From: Acidobacteriota bacterium
GTDB taxonomy: Bacteria; Acidobacteriota; Vicinamibacteria; Fen-336
DNA length: 64,000 nucleotides
Reading direction: 5' to 3'
NCBI GenBank assembly: GCA_011526565.1
Contig: WYBL01000116.1
Span: 3,019 to 67,018, forward strand
Part shown: one piece after another, positions 8,178 through 15,647 of the stretch
How the letters are laid out: every line of letters starts with the position of its first letter
How positions within the stretch are numbered: the first letter of the stretch is position 1
Notes under the pieces: generated by a model
Seen by the model: the letters and a program-made list of their open reading frames with translations, nothing else
The model's database searches: none
What the model was told of the DNA's origin: nothing
Position numbers and translations under genes: made by a program

Positions 8178-9422
8178 TCAGCCGCGGCGCAGCACCATCA
8201 GCGTGCGGTCGTCGGGCTCCGGGCCGCCCGAGGAGTGTGCAGCGACTGCCGCGAGCATCGCGTCGGCAGCGGGATCGGGGGCGAGCGCGGCGAGTTCGAC
8301 GAGCAGCCGCTCGACGCCCTCGATCCCCAGTTCTTCGCCCGAGAGCCCGGCCGCCTCGTTGAGGCCGTCGCTGTACAGCAGGAGCTGGGCGCCCTCCGGA
8401 AGCTCGAACGTCAGCTCCTCGAAGCTCGACGCCGGCAGCATCCCGAGCGGCGGCCCCGTCGACTCCAGGCGCCGCACCGTGCCGTCCGCGAGCCGCAGCA
8501 GCACCGGCGGGTGCCCCGCATTGACGAGCCGGGCGCGCGTCGCGTCCGCTTCCAGCAGCAGCAGCGCGACCGTCGCGTAGCGGCTGCCCTCGAGCCGGTC
8601 GTAGATCACGTTGTTGAGGTGGGCGACCCAGGCCGGCAGGTCGAGGCCGAGTGCGGTGGTGGCGAGCAGCGCGGCCTGCAGATTCGACATCACGAGCGCC
8701 GCCGCCACGCCCTTGCCGGAGACGTCGGCGACGACGAACAGGTGGCGCCCGCCGGGCAGCGCGATCACGTCGTAGTAGTCGCCGCCGACCTCGCGCGAGG
8801 TCACCATGCGCGCCGCGGCCTGCACCCCCGGCACCGTCGGCAGCCGCGCCGGCAGCAGCAGCGTCTGGATGCGGCGCGCCAGCTCCAGCTCGCGGGCCAT
8901 CTTCTGGCTCGCCAGCAGGAGCTGCTGGGTGCGCGCGTTCTCGATCGCCTGCGCGACCTGGTCGCCCATCAGCGTCAGGAACTGGACGTCGTCCTGGGTG
9001 AAGCCGCCCGGCTTGTTGAGGAGCTGGATCACCGACGCCACGCCGCCCTGGCGGTCGCGGATCGGCACGCACAGGGCGTTCTCGGTGCGGAAGCCGGTGC
9101 GGCGGTCGACCTCCGGGTCGAACAGCGGCGAGCTCCGCACGTCGTCGACCTTGAGCACTTCGCCCTTCTCCGCGGTGAAGCCGGCCATGCCCTTGCCGTA
9201 GGGCAGCCGGATCTCCAGCCGCTCGGGGCCCGCGGTGACCCGCGACCACAGCTCGCGCTTGTCGTCGTCGCACACGTACACGGTGCCCCGCGCGGCGCCG
9301 ACGGTCGAGGTGGCGGCGACCAGGATGTTGTCGAGCAGGCGGTCGACGTCGAGGCTCTGGTGGACGAGGCGGCCGGCCTCGACCAGCGCCCGCAACCGCA
9401 GGACCTCGGTGTCGAGGTTCAT
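8178..9422 (-). CDS. GAF domain-containing PP2C-type Ser/Thr phosphatase (RsbU/SpoIIE-like)
   Basis: MNLDTEVLRLRALVEAGR... GAF (GTVYVCDDDKRELW...ALCVPI) then PPM motifs GGDYYDV, FVVADVSGKGVAAAL, LLLYSDGL; ATG overlaps upstream stop (ATGA at 9419-9422). Confidence 0.8.
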   Translation of the reverse strand: MNLDTEVLRLRALVEAGRLVHQSLDVDRLLDNILVAATSTVGAARGTVYVCDDDKRELWSRVTAGPERLEIRLPYGKGMAGFTAEKGEVLKVDDVRSSPLFDPEVDRRTGFRTENALCVPIRDRQGGVASVIQLLNKPGGFTQDDVQFLTLMGDQVAQAIENARTQQLLLASQKMARELELARRIQTLLLPARLPTVPGVQAAARMVTSREVGGDYYDVIALPGGRHLFVVADVSGKGVAAALVMSNLQAALLATTALGLDLPAWVAHLNNVIYDRLEGSRYATVALLLLEADATRARLVNAGHPPVLLRLADGTVRRLESTGPPLGMLPASSFEELTFELPEGAQLLLYSDGLNEAAGLSGEELGIEGVERLLVELAALAPDPAADAMLAAVAAHSSGGPEPDDRTLMVLRRG

Positions 9423-11029
9423 CGCGCAGCCCCCGGCTGGAGCAGCGTGAAGCCCTCCTTCGCCTTCGCCTCGGCGACGATCCGCCGCACGTCCTCCAGC
9501 AGCCGCTTCGCGTCGTAGACGATGCCGTCCTTGATCGTGTAGCGCACGCCGCCGACACGGACCGGCTCGTTCTTCGCGTCGAGCTCGATCGCCCCGGTGC
9601 CGTACAGGGAGCCGAGGTGGGCCAGCGGGTTCTTCGAAAGCACCACCAGGTCGGCCTTCTTGCCGACCTCGACCGAGCCCACGTCCTTCGCGCGGCCGAG
9701 CGCCTCCGCGCCCTTCAGCGTCGCCGCGCGCAGCACCTCGAGCGGGTGGAAGCCCGCCTCGCGCAGCAGCTCCAGCTCGCGCACGTAGTCGAAGCCGTAG
9801 AGCTTGTAGATGAAGCCCGAGTCGGAGCCGGTGGTGACGCTGCCGCCGCGGTTCTTGTACTCGTTCACGAACGCCATCCACAGCCGGTAGTTCTCGCGCC
9901 AGGCCACCTCGTCCTCGGTGGTCCAGTAGAACCAGTACGAGCCGTGGGCCTTGCGCGAGGGCTGGTAGAAGCGCCACAGCGAGGGCAGCGTGTGCTCCTC
10001 GTGCCACTCGGCGCGGCGGGCCCGCATCAGGTCGCGGCTGGCCTCGTAGATCGTGAAGGTGGGATCGAGGTTGAAGCCGAGCGAGACGAGCTCGTCCATC
10101 ACCGCGTTCCACTTCGGGCTGAACGGCGCCGCCGCCTGCTTCCACAGCCGGCCGGCCTCGCCGAAGCGGTGCTGCTCGTCGTTGTAGTTGTAGCCGGCCG
10201 GAAAGTCCTGGACGGTGCGGCCCTCGAACAGCGCCTCGGGCAGCCCGTACCAGTGCTCCATGCCGTGCAGGCCCATGCGCGCGGCGTCGAGCACGTTGAC
10301 GCGCGCGACGCCCAGTTGCGCCAGGTGGGCCGTGGTGCGGATGCCCTGCTTCCGCGCCTCGTCGATGGTGGCCGCCATGATCGCCGGCGGCAGCGAGGTC
10401 AGCTTGAGGCCGTCGGCGCCCTGCTTCGCGACCGAGGCCACCCACGCCCGCGCCGCCTCGGGGGTGCTCGCCGGCGCCTTCAGGCCCTGGCTCCACCACG
10501 CGTAGGCCTCGATCCGCGGCGCCGTGATCTCGTTGCGCGCGCTCTTCGCCTTCGCCTCCAGCACCCAATCGAGCCCGTTGCCGGCCCCGGGATCGCGGAT
10601 CGTCGTCACGCCGTGGGCCATCCACAGCTTGAAGACGTACTCGGCAGGCGTGCCCTGCTCGCGGCCGCCGATGTGGGCGTGGGCGTCGACGAAGCCGGGG
10701 ATCACGAAGTGGCCGTCGAGCTCGCGGACCTCGTCGCCGGGTTCCGCCTTGGGCCGCCGCGACGGGTCGATCGGCACGCCGGGGAAGCCGACGCTCTGGA
10801 TCTTCGCGATGCGGTCCTTCTCGATGACGATGTCGACGGGGCCCACCGGCGGAGCCCCGGTGCCGTCGATCAGCGTCACGCCGCGCAGGATCAGCCGCCC
10901 CCACGGCCCCTCGCCTTCGGCCCTGGGGGGCGCCTTGGGAATGCCCCGCGCCTCCTCCTCGTCGGCCCCCGCGCCGCCGGCGAACAGCGCCAGCCCCGCG
11001 CACAGGACCAGTGACAGCCAGCGGTTCAT
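9419..11029 (-). CDS. Periplasmic metal-dependent amidohydrolase family protein
   Basis: Signal peptide MNRWLSLVLCAGLALFAGGAGA; HFVIPGFVDAHAHIGG (HxH metal ligands), later VTTGSDSG and GKKADLVVL typical of amidohydrolase superfamily. Confidence 0.8.
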   Translation of the reverse strand: MNRWLSLVLCAGLALFAGGAGADEEEARGIPKAPPRAEGEGPWGRLILRGVTLIDGTGAPPVGPVDIVIEKDRIAKIQSVGFPGVPIDPSRRPKAEPGDEVRELDGHFVIPGFVDAHAHIGGREQGTPAEYVFKLWMAHGVTTIRDPGAGNGLDWVLEAKAKSARNEITAPRIEAYAWWSQGLKAPASTPEAARAWVASVAKQGADGLKLTSLPPAIMAATIDEARKQGIRTTAHLAQLGVARVNVLDAARMGLHGMEHWYGLPEALFEGRTVQDFPAGYNYNDEQHRFGEAGRLWKQAAAPFSPKWNAVMDELVSLGFNLDPTFTIYEASRDLMRARRAEWHEEHTLPSLWRFYQPSRKAHGSYWFYWTTEDEVAWRENYRLWMAFVNEYKNRGGSVTTGSDSGFIYKLYGFDYVRELELLREAGFHPLEVLRAATLKGAEALGRAKDVGSVEVGKKADLVVLSKNPLAHLGSLYGTGAIELDAKNEPVRVGGVRYTIKDGIVYDAKRLLEDVRRIVAEAKAKEGFTLLQPGAAR

Positions 11030-11049
11030 CGCGCGACCTCCGGGACCTC

Positions 11050-14011: not shown

Positions 14012-14072
14012 GTTCCGCGGAGGATAGCCGATTCCGGGGCGGACCCGGGCGGGCGTCGACGAGGCCCCGTCG

Positions 14073-15647
14073 GTGCTGTTACAGTGCGCGCGGTTTCCCA
14101 AGGGAATGAAGCTGCTCCAGGACCTCTCGATCCGGCGCAAGCTGATCGCCATCATCCTGATGACGACCAGCGCGGTCTTCCTGCTGACCGCGGTCGCCTT
14201 CTTCAGCTACGACCTCGTCACCCTGCGCGGGCGCATGGTCGAAGAACTGAAGGTGATGGCGCGCCTGGTCGACGCCAACACCCAGGCCCTGCTCCTCTTC
14301 AACGAGCAGGACGAGGCGCGGGCCCGGCTGGAGTCGCTGGCCGCGCAGCCGCGGCTGCTCTCGGCCCGGCTGCTGACCCCCGACGGCAAGGTCCTCGCCG
14401 AATACGTGGCCAAGAGCCGCGAGGGACCGATGGGCGGGCCGCCCGAGGTGGAGACCGTGCGCGACCAGGAGCTGCACCGCTTCCTGCCCGGAACCCTGCT
14501 GCCGCGCCGCCTGGTCCTGTCGCGCCCGATCTACATCGGCCAGGACCAGTTCGCGGGCTGGGTCTACCTCGAGTCCGACACCCGCGAGCTGACGGCCCGG
14601 CTGTGGAACTACTTCGGCGTCACGGCGCTGATCATGCTGGCGGCCTCCGGCCTCGCGTTCCTGCTCTCCTCGCGGCTGCAGGGCCTGGTCTCGGAGCCGA
14701 TCCTTCACCTCGTGCAGGTGGCCGGCGAGGTCTCCCACAAGCAGGACTACCGGGTGCGGGCGACGCGGCGCGGCGACGACGAGGTCGGCAAGCTGGTCGA
14801 CGCCTTCAACGAGATGCTGGTCCAGATCGAGCGCCGCGACGAGGCCCTCGTCGAAGCGCGCGACCAGGCCTACGAGGTGAGCCGGACCAAGAGCGCGTTC
14901 CTGGCCAACATGAGCCACGAGTTGCGCACGCCGCTCAACGCCATCATCGGCTACACGGAGATGCTGCGCGAGGAGGCGGAAGAAGTCGGCCAGGAGGACT
15001 TCATCCCCGACCTGGTCAAGATCCACTCGGCCGGCAAGCACCTGCTGGGGCTGATCAACGACATCCTCGATCTGTCGAAGATCGAGGCCGGCAAGATGAC
15101 CGTGCACGCCGAGCTGTTCGACGTGGCGGGCGTCGTGCGCGACGTCGCCTCCACCGTGCAGCCGCTGTTCGACAAGAACGGCAACGTCCTGGTCGTCGAG
15201 ACCGGCGACGGGCTCGGCGACATGAGTTCCGACGTCACCCGCGTGCGCCAGGTGCTGCTCAACCTGCTGTCGAACGCCTCGAAGTTCACGTCGGCGGGCC
15301 GTGTCCACATGCGGGTCGGCAAGTTCGAGCGCGACGGCGCCGACTGGGTCCGCTTCGCGGTCCAGGACTCGGGCATCGGCATGACCCCGGAGCAGCTCGC
15401 CAAGCTGTTCCAGCCGTTCAGCCAGGCCGATTCCTCGACGACCCGCAAGTACGGCGGCACCGGGCTCGGCCTCGCGATCAGCCGCCGCTTCTGCCACATG
15501 ATGGGCGGCGACATCGCGGTGACCAGCGAGATCGGCAAGGGCTCGACCTTCACCGTCGAGTTGCCCGTGGCGATGCCCGAGCCCGCGGCCTCCTCCGCCG
15601 TGCGGGCGCGGGCCGCGGCCGAGCCGAGGCCCGCCACCGGGCGCTAG
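14073..15647 (+). CDS. Membrane sensor histidine kinase (periplasmic sensor-TM-HAMP-HisKA-HATPase_c)
   Basis: TM1 [25 protein letters not shown]2 [21 protein letters not shown]-box [34 protein letters not shown]. Alternative ATG at 14106. Confidence 0.8.

Follow-up and report, generated by a model that had tools for sequence, protein, structure and literature searches.

The sensor histidine kinase, the soluble periplasmic binding protein (PBP) and the TonB-dependent outer-membrane receptor (TBDR) encoded side by side in the 64-kb stretch of soil-acidobacterium DNA analysed here (the window) are a YfiBNR-type system in a new form, rather than a nutrient-breakdown operon, and together they are probably one envelope-spanning sensor. 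The conserved unit is this trio and not the four-gene minus-strand operon proposed in the first-pass annotation. Each of the nine lineages compared (the window, L006, L001, L002/3/10, L004/5, L007, L009, L017 and L024, all Vicinamibacteria/Acidobacteriota) has a CHASE8-HAMP kinase gene, a divergent PBP gene and a TBDR gene directly downstream of the PBP gene, with identities to the window's proteins that drop to about 50-56%. The surroundings of the trio fall into at least three types, including the TLC-HEAT-cNMP side, LPS-core genes and futalosine/DsbA genes. As the nine lineages come from a single acidobacterial group, synteny by descent could account for part of this conservation; against it stand L004 and L024, where the trio is relocated.

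Gene anatomy and the divergent intergenic region

The five genes are all real and lie on the strands previously assigned to them, as seen from the third-position GC of 0.95-0.97 in the coding frames and from the strong domain matches. The kinase gene starts at ATG 14106. The PBP gene, on the minus strand, most likely starts at GTG 14011 rather than ATG 14155, giving a protein of 280 aa with the same start as its identical NCBI counterpart P0001. These two starts define a divergent intergenic region of 94 nt (14012-14105) between the kinase gene and the PBP-TBDR operon. Concerning the gene junctions described earlier, the 14-nt overlap between the PBP and TBDR genes (the TBDR start being GTG) and the ATGA overlap joining the amidohydrolase and PP2C phosphatase genes are confirmed, whereas the reported 21-bp gap between the TBDR and amidohydrolase genes measures 20 nt. 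No convincing terminator is detected among the four minus-strand genes when these are scanned, the four weak candidates being located within coding sequence (1.8 +/- 1.6 are expected by chance). Overlaps of 11-20 nt between the PBP and TBDR genes are seen in the window, L001, L002 and L004, and the two genes are predicted from this arrangement to be tightly coupled translationally.

In the alignment of six orthologous intergenic regions, GTCGA and 13 further positions are invariant and the TATCCT-like boxes are kept. A conserved GCTATCCT-like box (AGGATA, 14021-14026, plus strand) is located immediately upstream of the PBP start. From the conservation we infer the placement of a candidate kinase promoter, with TCGACG (14056-14061) and TACAGT (14080-14085) separated by an 18-nt spacer; the generic promoter scan of the intergenic region gives no match at threshold.

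The kinase, its periplasmic partner and the receptor

The kinase (513 aa; 14106-15647, plus strand; Pfam CHASE8 E=2.5e-10, HAMP, HisKA and HATPase_c) has, according to hydropathy and motifs, a TM1 helix (residues ~13-31), a periplasmic CHASE8/sCache-like domain (~32-169), a TM2 helix (~170-188), a HAMP domain (~194-242), a HisKA domain with H271 and an HATPase_c domain; this layout includes no receiver domain. The CHASE8 periplasmic sensor domain had not been named in the first-pass annotation. The AF2 model (pLDDT 90.7) has the TM-helix/PDC-fold/TM-HAMP layout, and its best PDB matches are the sensor regions of WalK. The NCBIfam model NF053592 ('HK_near_YfiR_like') is covered over its whole length at 190.1 bits, just below the cut-off of 194, and the orthologous kinases pass it with 218-221 bits. 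This model also picks up E. coli DgcN/YfiN (81 bits), and conversely the DgcN model picks up the L001 kinase (82 bits). Clearly, the sensor module of the kinase is homologous to that of YfiN. When distant CHASE8-HAMP kinases are considered, five of six have a DUF4154/YfiR-family neighbour, two of these five having also an upstream TBDR, such that a periplasmic partner protein is usual for CHASE8 kinases. In tblastn searches of the whole 64-kb window with CheY and PhoB queries no receiver domain is found, and no response regulator is encoded there.

The PBP (13169-14011, minus strand) is a secreted, two-lobe type-I PBP with the signal peptide MTLAARLLLVASLAAPATG. Its match to PF04392 (ABC_sub_bind), 24.3 bits, is just below the gathering score of 25.9 bits, and its AF2 model (pLDDT 84.2) superimposes along its entire length, both lobes included, on PF04392 structures (Foldseek E from 1e-11 to 1e-13). 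The best PDB matches are all aromatic-amino-acid binders of this family, being VC_1101 (3LKV), TrpX/SP1069 (3LFT) and CD0873 (6HNJ/6HNI). The window's PBP differs from these importer SBPs in its low identity to canonical members (about 17%, against 36-38% among these) and in having a TBDR and a kinase as genomic partners instead of an adjacent permease and ATPase. The exhaustive HMMER search with the PBP gives only 15 clusters below 1e-30, and the subfamily is therefore small. The PBP thus represents a divergent PF04392-like subfamily with the full two-lobe fold, which occupies the slot of YfiR. The invariant residues gather at the C-terminal ends of the β-strands of both lobes, where type-I PBPs bind their ligand, and in the model the protein looks like a ligand binder. 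The name 'ABC-type uncharacterized transport system substrate-binding protein' is given by JGI to several of the PBP homologues. Neither the flanks of +/-8-10 kb in any of the nine lineages nor the 64-kb window contain an ABC-importer permease or ATPase that would serve the PBP; the window's ABC genes are limited to SufC and to a PhnD/C/E-like set, which has an SBP of its own and is missing from L006.

The TBDR (710 aa; 11050-13182, minus strand; Pfam Plug E=3e-33, TonB_dep_Rec_b-barrel E=5e-16) has a signal peptide, plug, barrel and C-terminal Phe. In seven orthologues the mature N-terminus carries a conserved DFFEQxxxYF peptide, which is present also in the distant L015, followed by the TonB-box-like motif ETIEGVSKHAE (ERIEGVSKHAE in the window), which is a candidate TonB box. 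In NCBIfam the receptor scores below the cut-offs of all TBDR families; its plug alone aligns with the TOL_0244 model, at 78.8 bits compared with 645.

Comparison with known systems and the proposed sensing module

The YfiBNR system (TpbB of P. aeruginosa; DgcN/YfiR/YfiB of E. coli) shares with the window the TM-CHASE8-TM-HAMP input module, in agreement with the cross-matches of ~81-82 bits, a soluble periplasmic partner encoded alongside and a third, outer-membrane component. The fold of YfiR resembles one lobe of the PF04392 proteins, the family of the window's PBP (PMC4655355). The sequence profiles of the PBP family and of DUF4154/YfiR give no signal when compared, and therefore the link between the PBP and YfiR is structural only; neither the DUF4154 signature nor the YfiR-like cysteine pattern is present in the PBP. 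The output domain is also different, being a histidine kinase in the window and a GGDEF cyclase in YfiN, and so are the periplasmic partner, a full two-lobe PBP, the outer-membrane partner, a TBDR instead of the OmpA-like lipoprotein YfiB, and the gene order, which is divergent instead of yfiR-yfiN-yfiB.

NCBIfam holds, besides the NF053592 kinase, the closely numbered NF053590 ('TOL_0244 family TonB-dependent receptor'), from which we infer that the two describe one curated TBDR/DUF4154/CHASE8 kinase system; no paper on such clusters was found in the literature. The kinase sensor at loci of the window type is essentially that of the NF053592 family, and both kinds of cluster include a TBDR, the order in L018 and L023 being TBDR, DUF4154, CHASE8 kinase. 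In the window a PF04392-like two-lobe PBP takes the place of the DUF4154 protein, the TBDR is of another subfamily (26% identical to the L018 TBDR) with a different N-terminal motif, and the kinase gene points away from the other two instead of in their direction; loci of the window type often have a GAF-PP2C gene in addition.

Histidine kinases that depend on SBPs include those of the LuxP-LuxQ, TorT-TorS, ChvE-VirA and AioX-AioS pairs, and the hybrid two-component sensors of Bacteroides read products imported through SusC-type TBDRs. The likeness lies in a free PBP or PBP-like sensor domain reporting ligand occupancy to a membrane kinase and, for the Bacteroides sensors, in the arrival of the ligand via a TBDR. 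The window's sensor differs in being a CHASE8 domain of sCache/PDC fold, with a PF04392-like PBP. We know of none of these systems in which the trio of the window is present.

In the reading that we prefer, to which we assign a probability of about 0.5, the trio is a sensing module spanning three compartments. The TBDR would let in or detect a ligand at the outer membrane, the soluble two-lobe PBP would take it up in the periplasm and dock on the CHASE8 domain, altering the activity of the kinase, and the output would pass to a response regulator encoded elsewhere. Stimulation of histidine kinases by SBPs is an established mechanism (PMC10443332). The earlier suggestion that the SBP-like protein serves the kinase as a sensor partner in the periplasm, and is not part of a transporter, is supported by the conservation of the trio in all nine lineages, by the lack of a local ABC permease or ATPase and by the YfiN-type CHASE8 module, whose relatives typically adjoin a periplasmic YfiR-family protein.

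Alternative readings and the two downstream genes

It is also conceivable, although unlikely, that the trio works by sequestration without transport, as in YfiBNR, with the PBP constitutively inhibiting (or activating) the kinase from the periplasm and the TBDR in the role of YfiB; a surface ligand or envelope stress would cause the N-terminal peptide or plug of the TBDR to capture the PBP, releasing the kinase. The homology of the sensor module with YfiN, the frequent replacement of YfiB by a TBDR in related DUF4154 systems and the coupling of the PBP and TBDR genes are consistent with this, and the DFFEQxxxYF peptide that precedes the TonB-box-like motif, L015 included, might be a signalling extension. 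However, with about 14 residues this extension falls far short of the signalling domains known from TBDRs, the PBP lacks the YfiR features mentioned above, and its full two-lobe architecture with a conserved inter-lobe cleft suggests small-molecule binding over pure protein sequestration. The fold, the weak Pfam match to a family whose characterised members serve ABC importers of Trp, Tyr and Phe as SBPs, and the JGI naming would fit ordinary nutrient uptake, in which the TBDR and SBP supply an ABC transporter encoded elsewhere and the kinase, making no contact with the SBP, only regulates transcription via an unlinked response regulator. This we regard as quite improbable, given the lack of a cognate permease and ATPase in the +/-8-10 kb flanks of the nine lineages and in the 64-kb window, the low identity to canonical members, the small separate subfamily and the periplasmic partner characteristic of CHASE8 sensors.

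Very improbable is the catabolic-signalling operon of the first-pass annotation, with uptake of an amide or ureide by the TBDR, its periplasmic cleavage by the amidohydrolase and a PP2C partner-switching cascade fed by the result. The packing of the genes leaves no space for internal promoters or terminators, L006 keeps the identical arrangement, and the secreted amidohydrolase (536 aa; 9419-11029, minus strand; Pfam Amidohydro_1 and Amidohydro_3, E=1e-22) has an N-terminal signal peptide and the complete set of ligands for a binuclear metal site (H117, H119, K209, H235, H259 and D403). However, outside the window the amidohydrolase occurs solely in the relative L006 (86% identical); seven of the nine lineages lack it, the PP2C gene directly following the TBDR gene in two of them (L009 and L017) and neither gene being present in five. 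This restricted occurrence, which speaks against import and periplasmic hydrolysis as the logic of the operon, points to an insertion specific to this lineage, placed between the genes for the TBDR and the PP2C. The enzyme belongs to the prolidase/Arg-carboxypeptidase-like group (COG1228 type), its nearest solved relatives being 2P9B, 9KOV, 4WHB, 3MTW and 3BE7. The characterised enzymes nearest to it are dipeptidase/carboxypeptidase-like and not allantoinase, dihydroorotase or other ureide hydrolases, which counts against the proposed operon. In the preferred three-compartment module the amidohydrolase stands outside the core and may pre-process the imported compound.

The proposed link of the GAF-PP2C phosphatase to the pathway holds in part. 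This cytoplasmic SpoIIE/RsbU-type Ser/Thr phosphatase (414 aa; 8178-9422, minus strand; Pfam SpoIIE E=4.4e-46, GAF E=1e-16) is encoded after the TBDR in four of the nine lineages (the window, L006, L009 and L017). On the other hand, tblastn with SpoIIAA and RsbW queries finds no STAS or RsbW-type (anti-sigma kinase) partner-switching component in the 64-kb window, which has no receiver component either, and a partner-switching cascade at the locus therefore stays conjecture. Probably co-transcribed in about half of the lineages, the phosphatase may be an accessory output or feedback element of the sensor. Its orthologues are 62-89% identical, and the metal-binding aspartates of the PP2C fold (D215, D233, D352 and D404/405) are present.

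Gene layout and conservation of the trio

The window has a G+C content of about 72%, and the five genes that the first-pass annotation had placed in the region 8178–15647 are confirmed at the same positions by third-position GC values of 0.95–0.97 in each frame and by clear domain matches. Four of these genes are on the minus strand, encoding a phosphatase with GAF and SpoIIE/PP2C domains (GAF-PP2C, 8178–9422), an amidohydrolase with a signal peptide (9419–11029), a TonB-dependent receptor (TBDR) with Plug and barrel domains (11050–13182) and a binding protein that is weakly PF04392-like (13169–14011); the fifth, on the plus strand, encodes a CHASE8-HAMP-HisKA-HATPase kinase (14106–15647). 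Followed from the binding-protein gene onward, the minus-strand genes overlap by 14 nt at the first junction, are 20 nt apart at the second and share an ATGA overlap at the third; both overlaps are as annotated initially, and the gap, given there as 21 nt, is one nucleotide shorter. For the binding-protein gene, the most likely start is GTG 14011, which is also that of an identical 280-aa NCBI protein, through which the window is assigned to a metagenome-assembled genome of Vicinamibacteria (Acidobacteriota); this start leaves a divergent intergenic region of 94 nt. No credible terminator was found inside the minus-strand gene run, where the scan candidates are at chance level only, and no promoter was found by a promoter scan of the locus. 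The stop codons of the PP2C gene (ending at 8178, minus strand) and of a convergent PhnE-like permease gene (ending at 8173, plus strand) are 4 nt apart, such that there is no room for intergenic terminators.

Related loci were fetched through binding-protein homologues (54–92% identical) from assemblies and GTDB genomes, with one more obtained through a kinase homologue, and the proteins of the window were mapped onto all of them. Nine distinct lineages are represented, being the window itself, its close relative L006, and the loci L001, L002/L003/L010, L004/L005, L007, L009, L017 and L024; another locus, L008, is a short fragment whose pattern agrees with that of the nine. In every one of these lineages, the CHASE8 kinase gene divergently adjoins the binding-protein gene and the TBDR gene directly follows the latter, overlapping it by 11–20 nt in the window, L001, L002 and L004. 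These three genes form a trio that is intact despite changing flanks, which are LPS-core genes in L004 and futalosine-pathway, M23 peptidase and DsbA-like genes in L024, and which include a TLC-like/HEAT/cNMP protein gene and an Orn/Arg-decarboxylase-like gene in several lineages. The position after the TBDR gene is occupied by the amidohydrolase and PP2C genes in the window and L006, by the PP2C gene directly in L009 (with a spacing of 3 nt) and L017, by a ComEC gene in L001, by leuA in L002 and L007, by a Glycos_transf_N/Glycos_transf_1 glycosyltransferase gene (KdtA/WaaA-like, by our reading), followed by LpxK, in L004, and by a DsbA-like gene in L024. Since the trio is constant and the gene after it is variable, the trio is the core of this locus. 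This comparative genomics, with the trio present in nine of nine lineages, also supports the initial suggestion that the binding protein is the sensor partner of the kinase.

In some of the fetched loci (L001, L017, L018, L020, L022 and L023), all from the ENA ERZ250395xx/ERZ250396xx 'contig_' assemblies, several genes are fragmented, with, for example, HisKA and HATPase as separate genes and TBDRs in two to five pieces. These split genes look like assembly frameshift errors rather than pseudogenes.

The trio proteins and the accessory genes

The AlphaFold model of the binding protein (pLDDT of 84.2) has the two-lobe fold of a type-I periplasmic binding protein (PBP), and its best Foldseek matches (E-values of 1e-11 to 1e-13) are 3LKV (VC_1101), 3LFT (TrpX/SP1069) and CD0873 (6HNJ/6HNI), which are PF04392 proteins binding Phe, Trp and Tyr (PMC6816091, PMC10443332). 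The sequence identity with these structures is about 17%, compared with 36–38% among the canonical members themselves. The PF04392 match scores 24.3 bits (Pfam gathering score, 25.9) over the C-terminal half only, and a profile search of the PDB gave no more than a marginal PF04392 match; a precomputed match is present in some orthologues, and the periplasmic protein beside the kinase is PF04392-like in all nine lineages. When 1.84 billion representative proteins were searched exhaustively with HMMER, only 15 clusters scored below 1e-30, after which the score drops sharply, and the binding protein therefore belongs to a small, separate subfamily. Its invariant residues are at the C-terminal ends of β-strands in both lobes, for example VANPA (after strand 89–93), NRE (after strand 129–134), D188 and GFLE (after strand 211–213), and when mapped on the model these positions are predicted to form the ligand site, as in other such proteins.

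Second-tier relatives of the binding protein (26–30% identical, PF04392-positive) were fetched from metagenomes, giving five loci. These were rejected as an extension of the trio, because neither L011 nor L014, the two that are long enough to show neighbours, has a TBDR or kinase gene, and L015, the only one with a downstream TBDR gene, lacks the divergent kinase. The relatives in L011 (2230–3129) and L014 (5965–6867) are orphans too, with no ABC transporter genes of a matching type next to them; a multihaem cytochrome gene is near one second-tier relative, and an ABC-2 exporter gene and a DUF1579 gene precede another. Roles other than transport may be frequent in this PF04392 branch.

The kinase has CHASE8 (E=2.5e-10) and HAMP matches in Pfam, and its residues 9–244 align end to end with NF053592, the NCBIfam model for the YfiR-like-protein-associated kinase, with 190.1 bits (cut-off, 194); the scores are 221.5 bits for the orthologous kinase of L001 and 218.4 bits for that of L004. 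E. coli DgcN/YfiN, the CHASE8 cyclase of the YfiBNR system, scores 81 bits against NF053592, and the L001 kinase scores 82 bits against the DgcN model. These reciprocal matches indicate that the kinase and YfiN have homologous input modules. With the sensor alone as query, a word-indexed search retrieved only two proteins, and the wider relatives were drawn by an alignment-based search. In the AlphaFold model of residues 1–249 (pLDDT of 90.7), a transmembrane helix is followed by a long periplasmic helix, a five-stranded PDC/sCache-like sheet, a second transmembrane helix and the HAMP domain, and the closest PDB structures are WalK sensor regions. No response regulator gene is next to the kinase gene in L001, L002 and L004, and no receiver (REC) domain was found in the whole 64-kb window by tblastn with CheY and PhoB queries. 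The window has two histidine kinases, and both are therefore orphans.

The TBDR has a signal peptide, a plug, a barrel and a terminal Phe (ending in AELRF), matching Plug and TonB_dep_Rec_b-barrel in Pfam. Its mature N-terminus (window 13020–13100, codons ~28–55) is strongly conserved across seven orthologues, reading DFFEQxxxYF and then E(T/R)IEGVSKHAE. The E(T/R)IEGVS part is at the canonical TonB-box position before the plug, its likeness to the consensus being judged by eye, and DFFEQxxxYF might be a docking peptide. A similar N-terminus is found in the distant L015 (1300–1450), on a metagenome contig with a G+C content of 52% whose binding protein is 29–32% identical. Against the model for the TOL_0244 family TBDR (NF053590), the receptor scores 78.8 bits over the plug only (cut-off, 645), and its orthologues score 70–73 bits.

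The alignment of the orthologous regions between the kinase and binding-protein genes (14012–14105 in the window) shows conserved DNA motifs. GTCGA is invariant, lying within GTCGAC at 14055–14060, with T as the sixth base in L007, and it agrees with the -35 element in a candidate kinase promoter, TCGAC(A/G)-N17/18-TA(T/C)(C/A)(C/G/T)T. The box GAAAT(G/C)(C/G)G(C/T)TATCCT is 9–15 nt ahead of the start codon of the binding-protein gene, a position that would imply either a near-leaderless mRNA or an operator. All Rfam matches are below threshold, and consequently no riboswitch gives a clue to the ligand.

GAF-PP2C is a frequent fourth member, kept in four of the nine lineages across a protein divergence of about 50%, and these lineages are on both sides of the midpoint-rooted TBDR tree. 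The PP2C domain is well matched (SpoIIE, E=4.4e-46), with its catalytic aspartates D215, D233, D352 and D404/405 present, and its GAF domain might be linked to cNMP signalling. A connection of the pathway to a partner-switching or phosphorylation cascade through this phosphatase had been proposed: its recurrence after the TBDR gene partly supports a link of the phosphatase to the trio, and partner switching is conjectural, no STAS or RsbW partner having been found in the window by tblastn with SpoIIAA and RsbW (E<=1), bar one chance-level match.

The amidohydrolase gene is, judging from the compared loci, an insertion specific to the lineage of the window and L006. The enzyme has all six ligands of the binuclear metal site (H117, H119, K209, H235, H259 and D403), as aligned with 2P9B and 9KOV, and carries an insertion of about 100 residues. 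It is of the binuclear subtype of the superfamily and COG1228-like, and it is under the cut-off of every NCBIfam equivalog. Among solved structures, it is closest to enzymes of the prolidase-like and Arg-carboxypeptidase-like kinds and to phenylurea/molinate hydrolases. The enzyme is neither allantoinase-like nor dihydroorotase-like, the latter having been among the initial candidates.

Comparison with YfiBNR and the proposed relay

To our knowledge, the only CHASE8 system that has been studied is YfiBNR of P. aeruginosa and E. coli, and the signal that is sensed by its periplasmic partner is still debated. In this system, the periplasmic YfiR represses the cyclase YfiN (PMC4655355). The inner-membrane sensor of the window shares with YfiN a periplasmic CHASE8 domain followed by HAMP, whereas its output is HisKA and HATPase_c, with no GGDEF diguanylate cyclase domain found by Pfam and NCBIfam. 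The periplasmic partner is also different, not being a YfiR/DUF4154 protein: PF13689 and NF053586 do not match the binding protein even at E<=10, and hhalign of its profile with E. coli YfiR and with a six-sequence DUF4154 profile gives a probability below 1%. The comparison thus gives no sequence-level support for the PBP having descended from YfiR or YfiR from the PBP, and their kinship is at the fold level only, via 3LFT and 3LKV. The outer-membrane component differs as well: it is a plug-and-barrel TBDR as opposed to an OmpA/Pal-like lipoprotein such as YfiB, and no OmpA-like gene is in the cluster of the window.

Among six more distant CHASE8-HAMP kinases, with sensors that are 27–41% identical, five are adjoined by a DUF4154/YfiR-family protein, and such neighbours are confined to these more distant kinases. 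In two of the five (L018 and L023), the TBDR gene is directly upstream, in the order TBDR, DUF4154 protein, kinase, which we infer to be the arrangement meant by the NCBIfam family names. The clade of the window uses the same kinase sensor module; however, a full PF04392-like PBP fills the YfiR slot, and the TBDR is of another subfamily, being 26% identical to the L018 TBDR and matching the TOL_0244 model over the plug only. The DFFEQxxxYF-type start is absent from the TBDRs of the DUF4154 clusters. The locus is therefore akin to the YfiBNR-type and TBDR/YfiR-like/kinase systems, with a PBP and a TBDR swapped in: in place of the single-lobe YfiR there is a complete, putatively ligand-binding PBP, and in place of the lipoprotein a TBDR. 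No description was found in the literature of a TBDR/PBP/CHASE8 system, nor of the TBDR/DUF4154/kinase arrangement. The locus suggests PBP-fold adaptors as the means by which CHASE8 sensors read the periplasm, and it offers a tractable route to ask whether small molecules are read in this way and whether two-component systems can receive signals from TBDRs independently of the classical anti-sigma route.

The best-supported reading, to which we assign a probability of about 0.5, is a relay from the TBDR via the PBP to the CHASE8 kinase. The TBDR would admit a ligand, which would be bound by the PBP in the periplasm; the PBP would then dock on the CHASE8 domain and modulate the kinase, which would signal to an unlinked regulator. 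In some lineages, GAF-PP2C would be an accessory element in the cytoplasm, and the amidohydrolase would be a lineage-specific addition. It can be speculated, in keeping with the protein families, that in the window and L006 only, a peptide-like substrate is imported and trimmed by the amidohydrolase, with the PBP reading the freed amino acid.

It is possible, if rather unlikely, that the TBDR plays a sequestration role like that of YfiB. Ordinary uptake through an ABC transporter encoded elsewhere, with the kinase in a purely regulatory role, would suit a protein with the fold of a PBP and appears improbable, as no cognate ABC permease or ATPase gene is present in the nine loci or in the 64-kb window, where the sole ABC genes are SufC and a PhnD/C/E-like set that has its own substrate-binding protein and is missing in L006. 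The initial four-gene catabolic model, in which import and periplasmic hydrolysis are the logic of the operon, is very improbable, the amidohydrolase being confined to the window and L006. Tight operon packing can mislead in this respect, as the amidohydrolase seems integral and yet is a recent passenger.

The relay reading can be extended, in a form that we consider unlikely as a whole, to CHASE8 serving PBP-fold partners in general as a docking platform. The clade of the window would then have kept or re-acquired the two-lobe ligand-binding form ancestral to the single-lobe YfiR, and TBDR, PBP and kinase would together be a sigma-factor-independent trans-envelope relay, from TonB-energised surface sensing to His-Asp and Ser/Thr (GAF-PP2C) phospho-signalling.

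Adjoining clusters in the window

A second sensing-and-uptake cluster adjoins the locus on the plus strand (1693–8173), encoding a cytoplasmic GAF-HisKA-HATPase kinase (1693–3195), a TBDR with CarboxypepD_reg, Plug and barrel domains (3276–5744), a PhnD-like substrate-binding protein (5745–6644), an ABC ATPase (6645–7358) and the PhnE-like permease ending at 8173. The kinase cores of the GAF and CHASE8 kinases are 61–62% identical, and a common response regulator may therefore serve the two. L006 lacks the PhnD/C/E-like genes, and there the TBDR gene of the neighbouring cluster abuts the PP2C gene.

Proteins with cyclic-nucleotide-binding domains are unusually dense in the window, including a TLC-like transporter/HEAT/cNMP protein (15655–18879), a cNMP-NTE-patatin lipase (26705–28609), a TPR-cNMP protein (32201–33325) and a TPR protein with two cNMP domains (34752–37532). 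The TLC-like/HEAT/cNMP gene adjoins the CHASE8 kinase gene convergently in the window, L006, L001 and L007, and it is within about 3–5 kb of this gene in L002/L003/L010 and L017.
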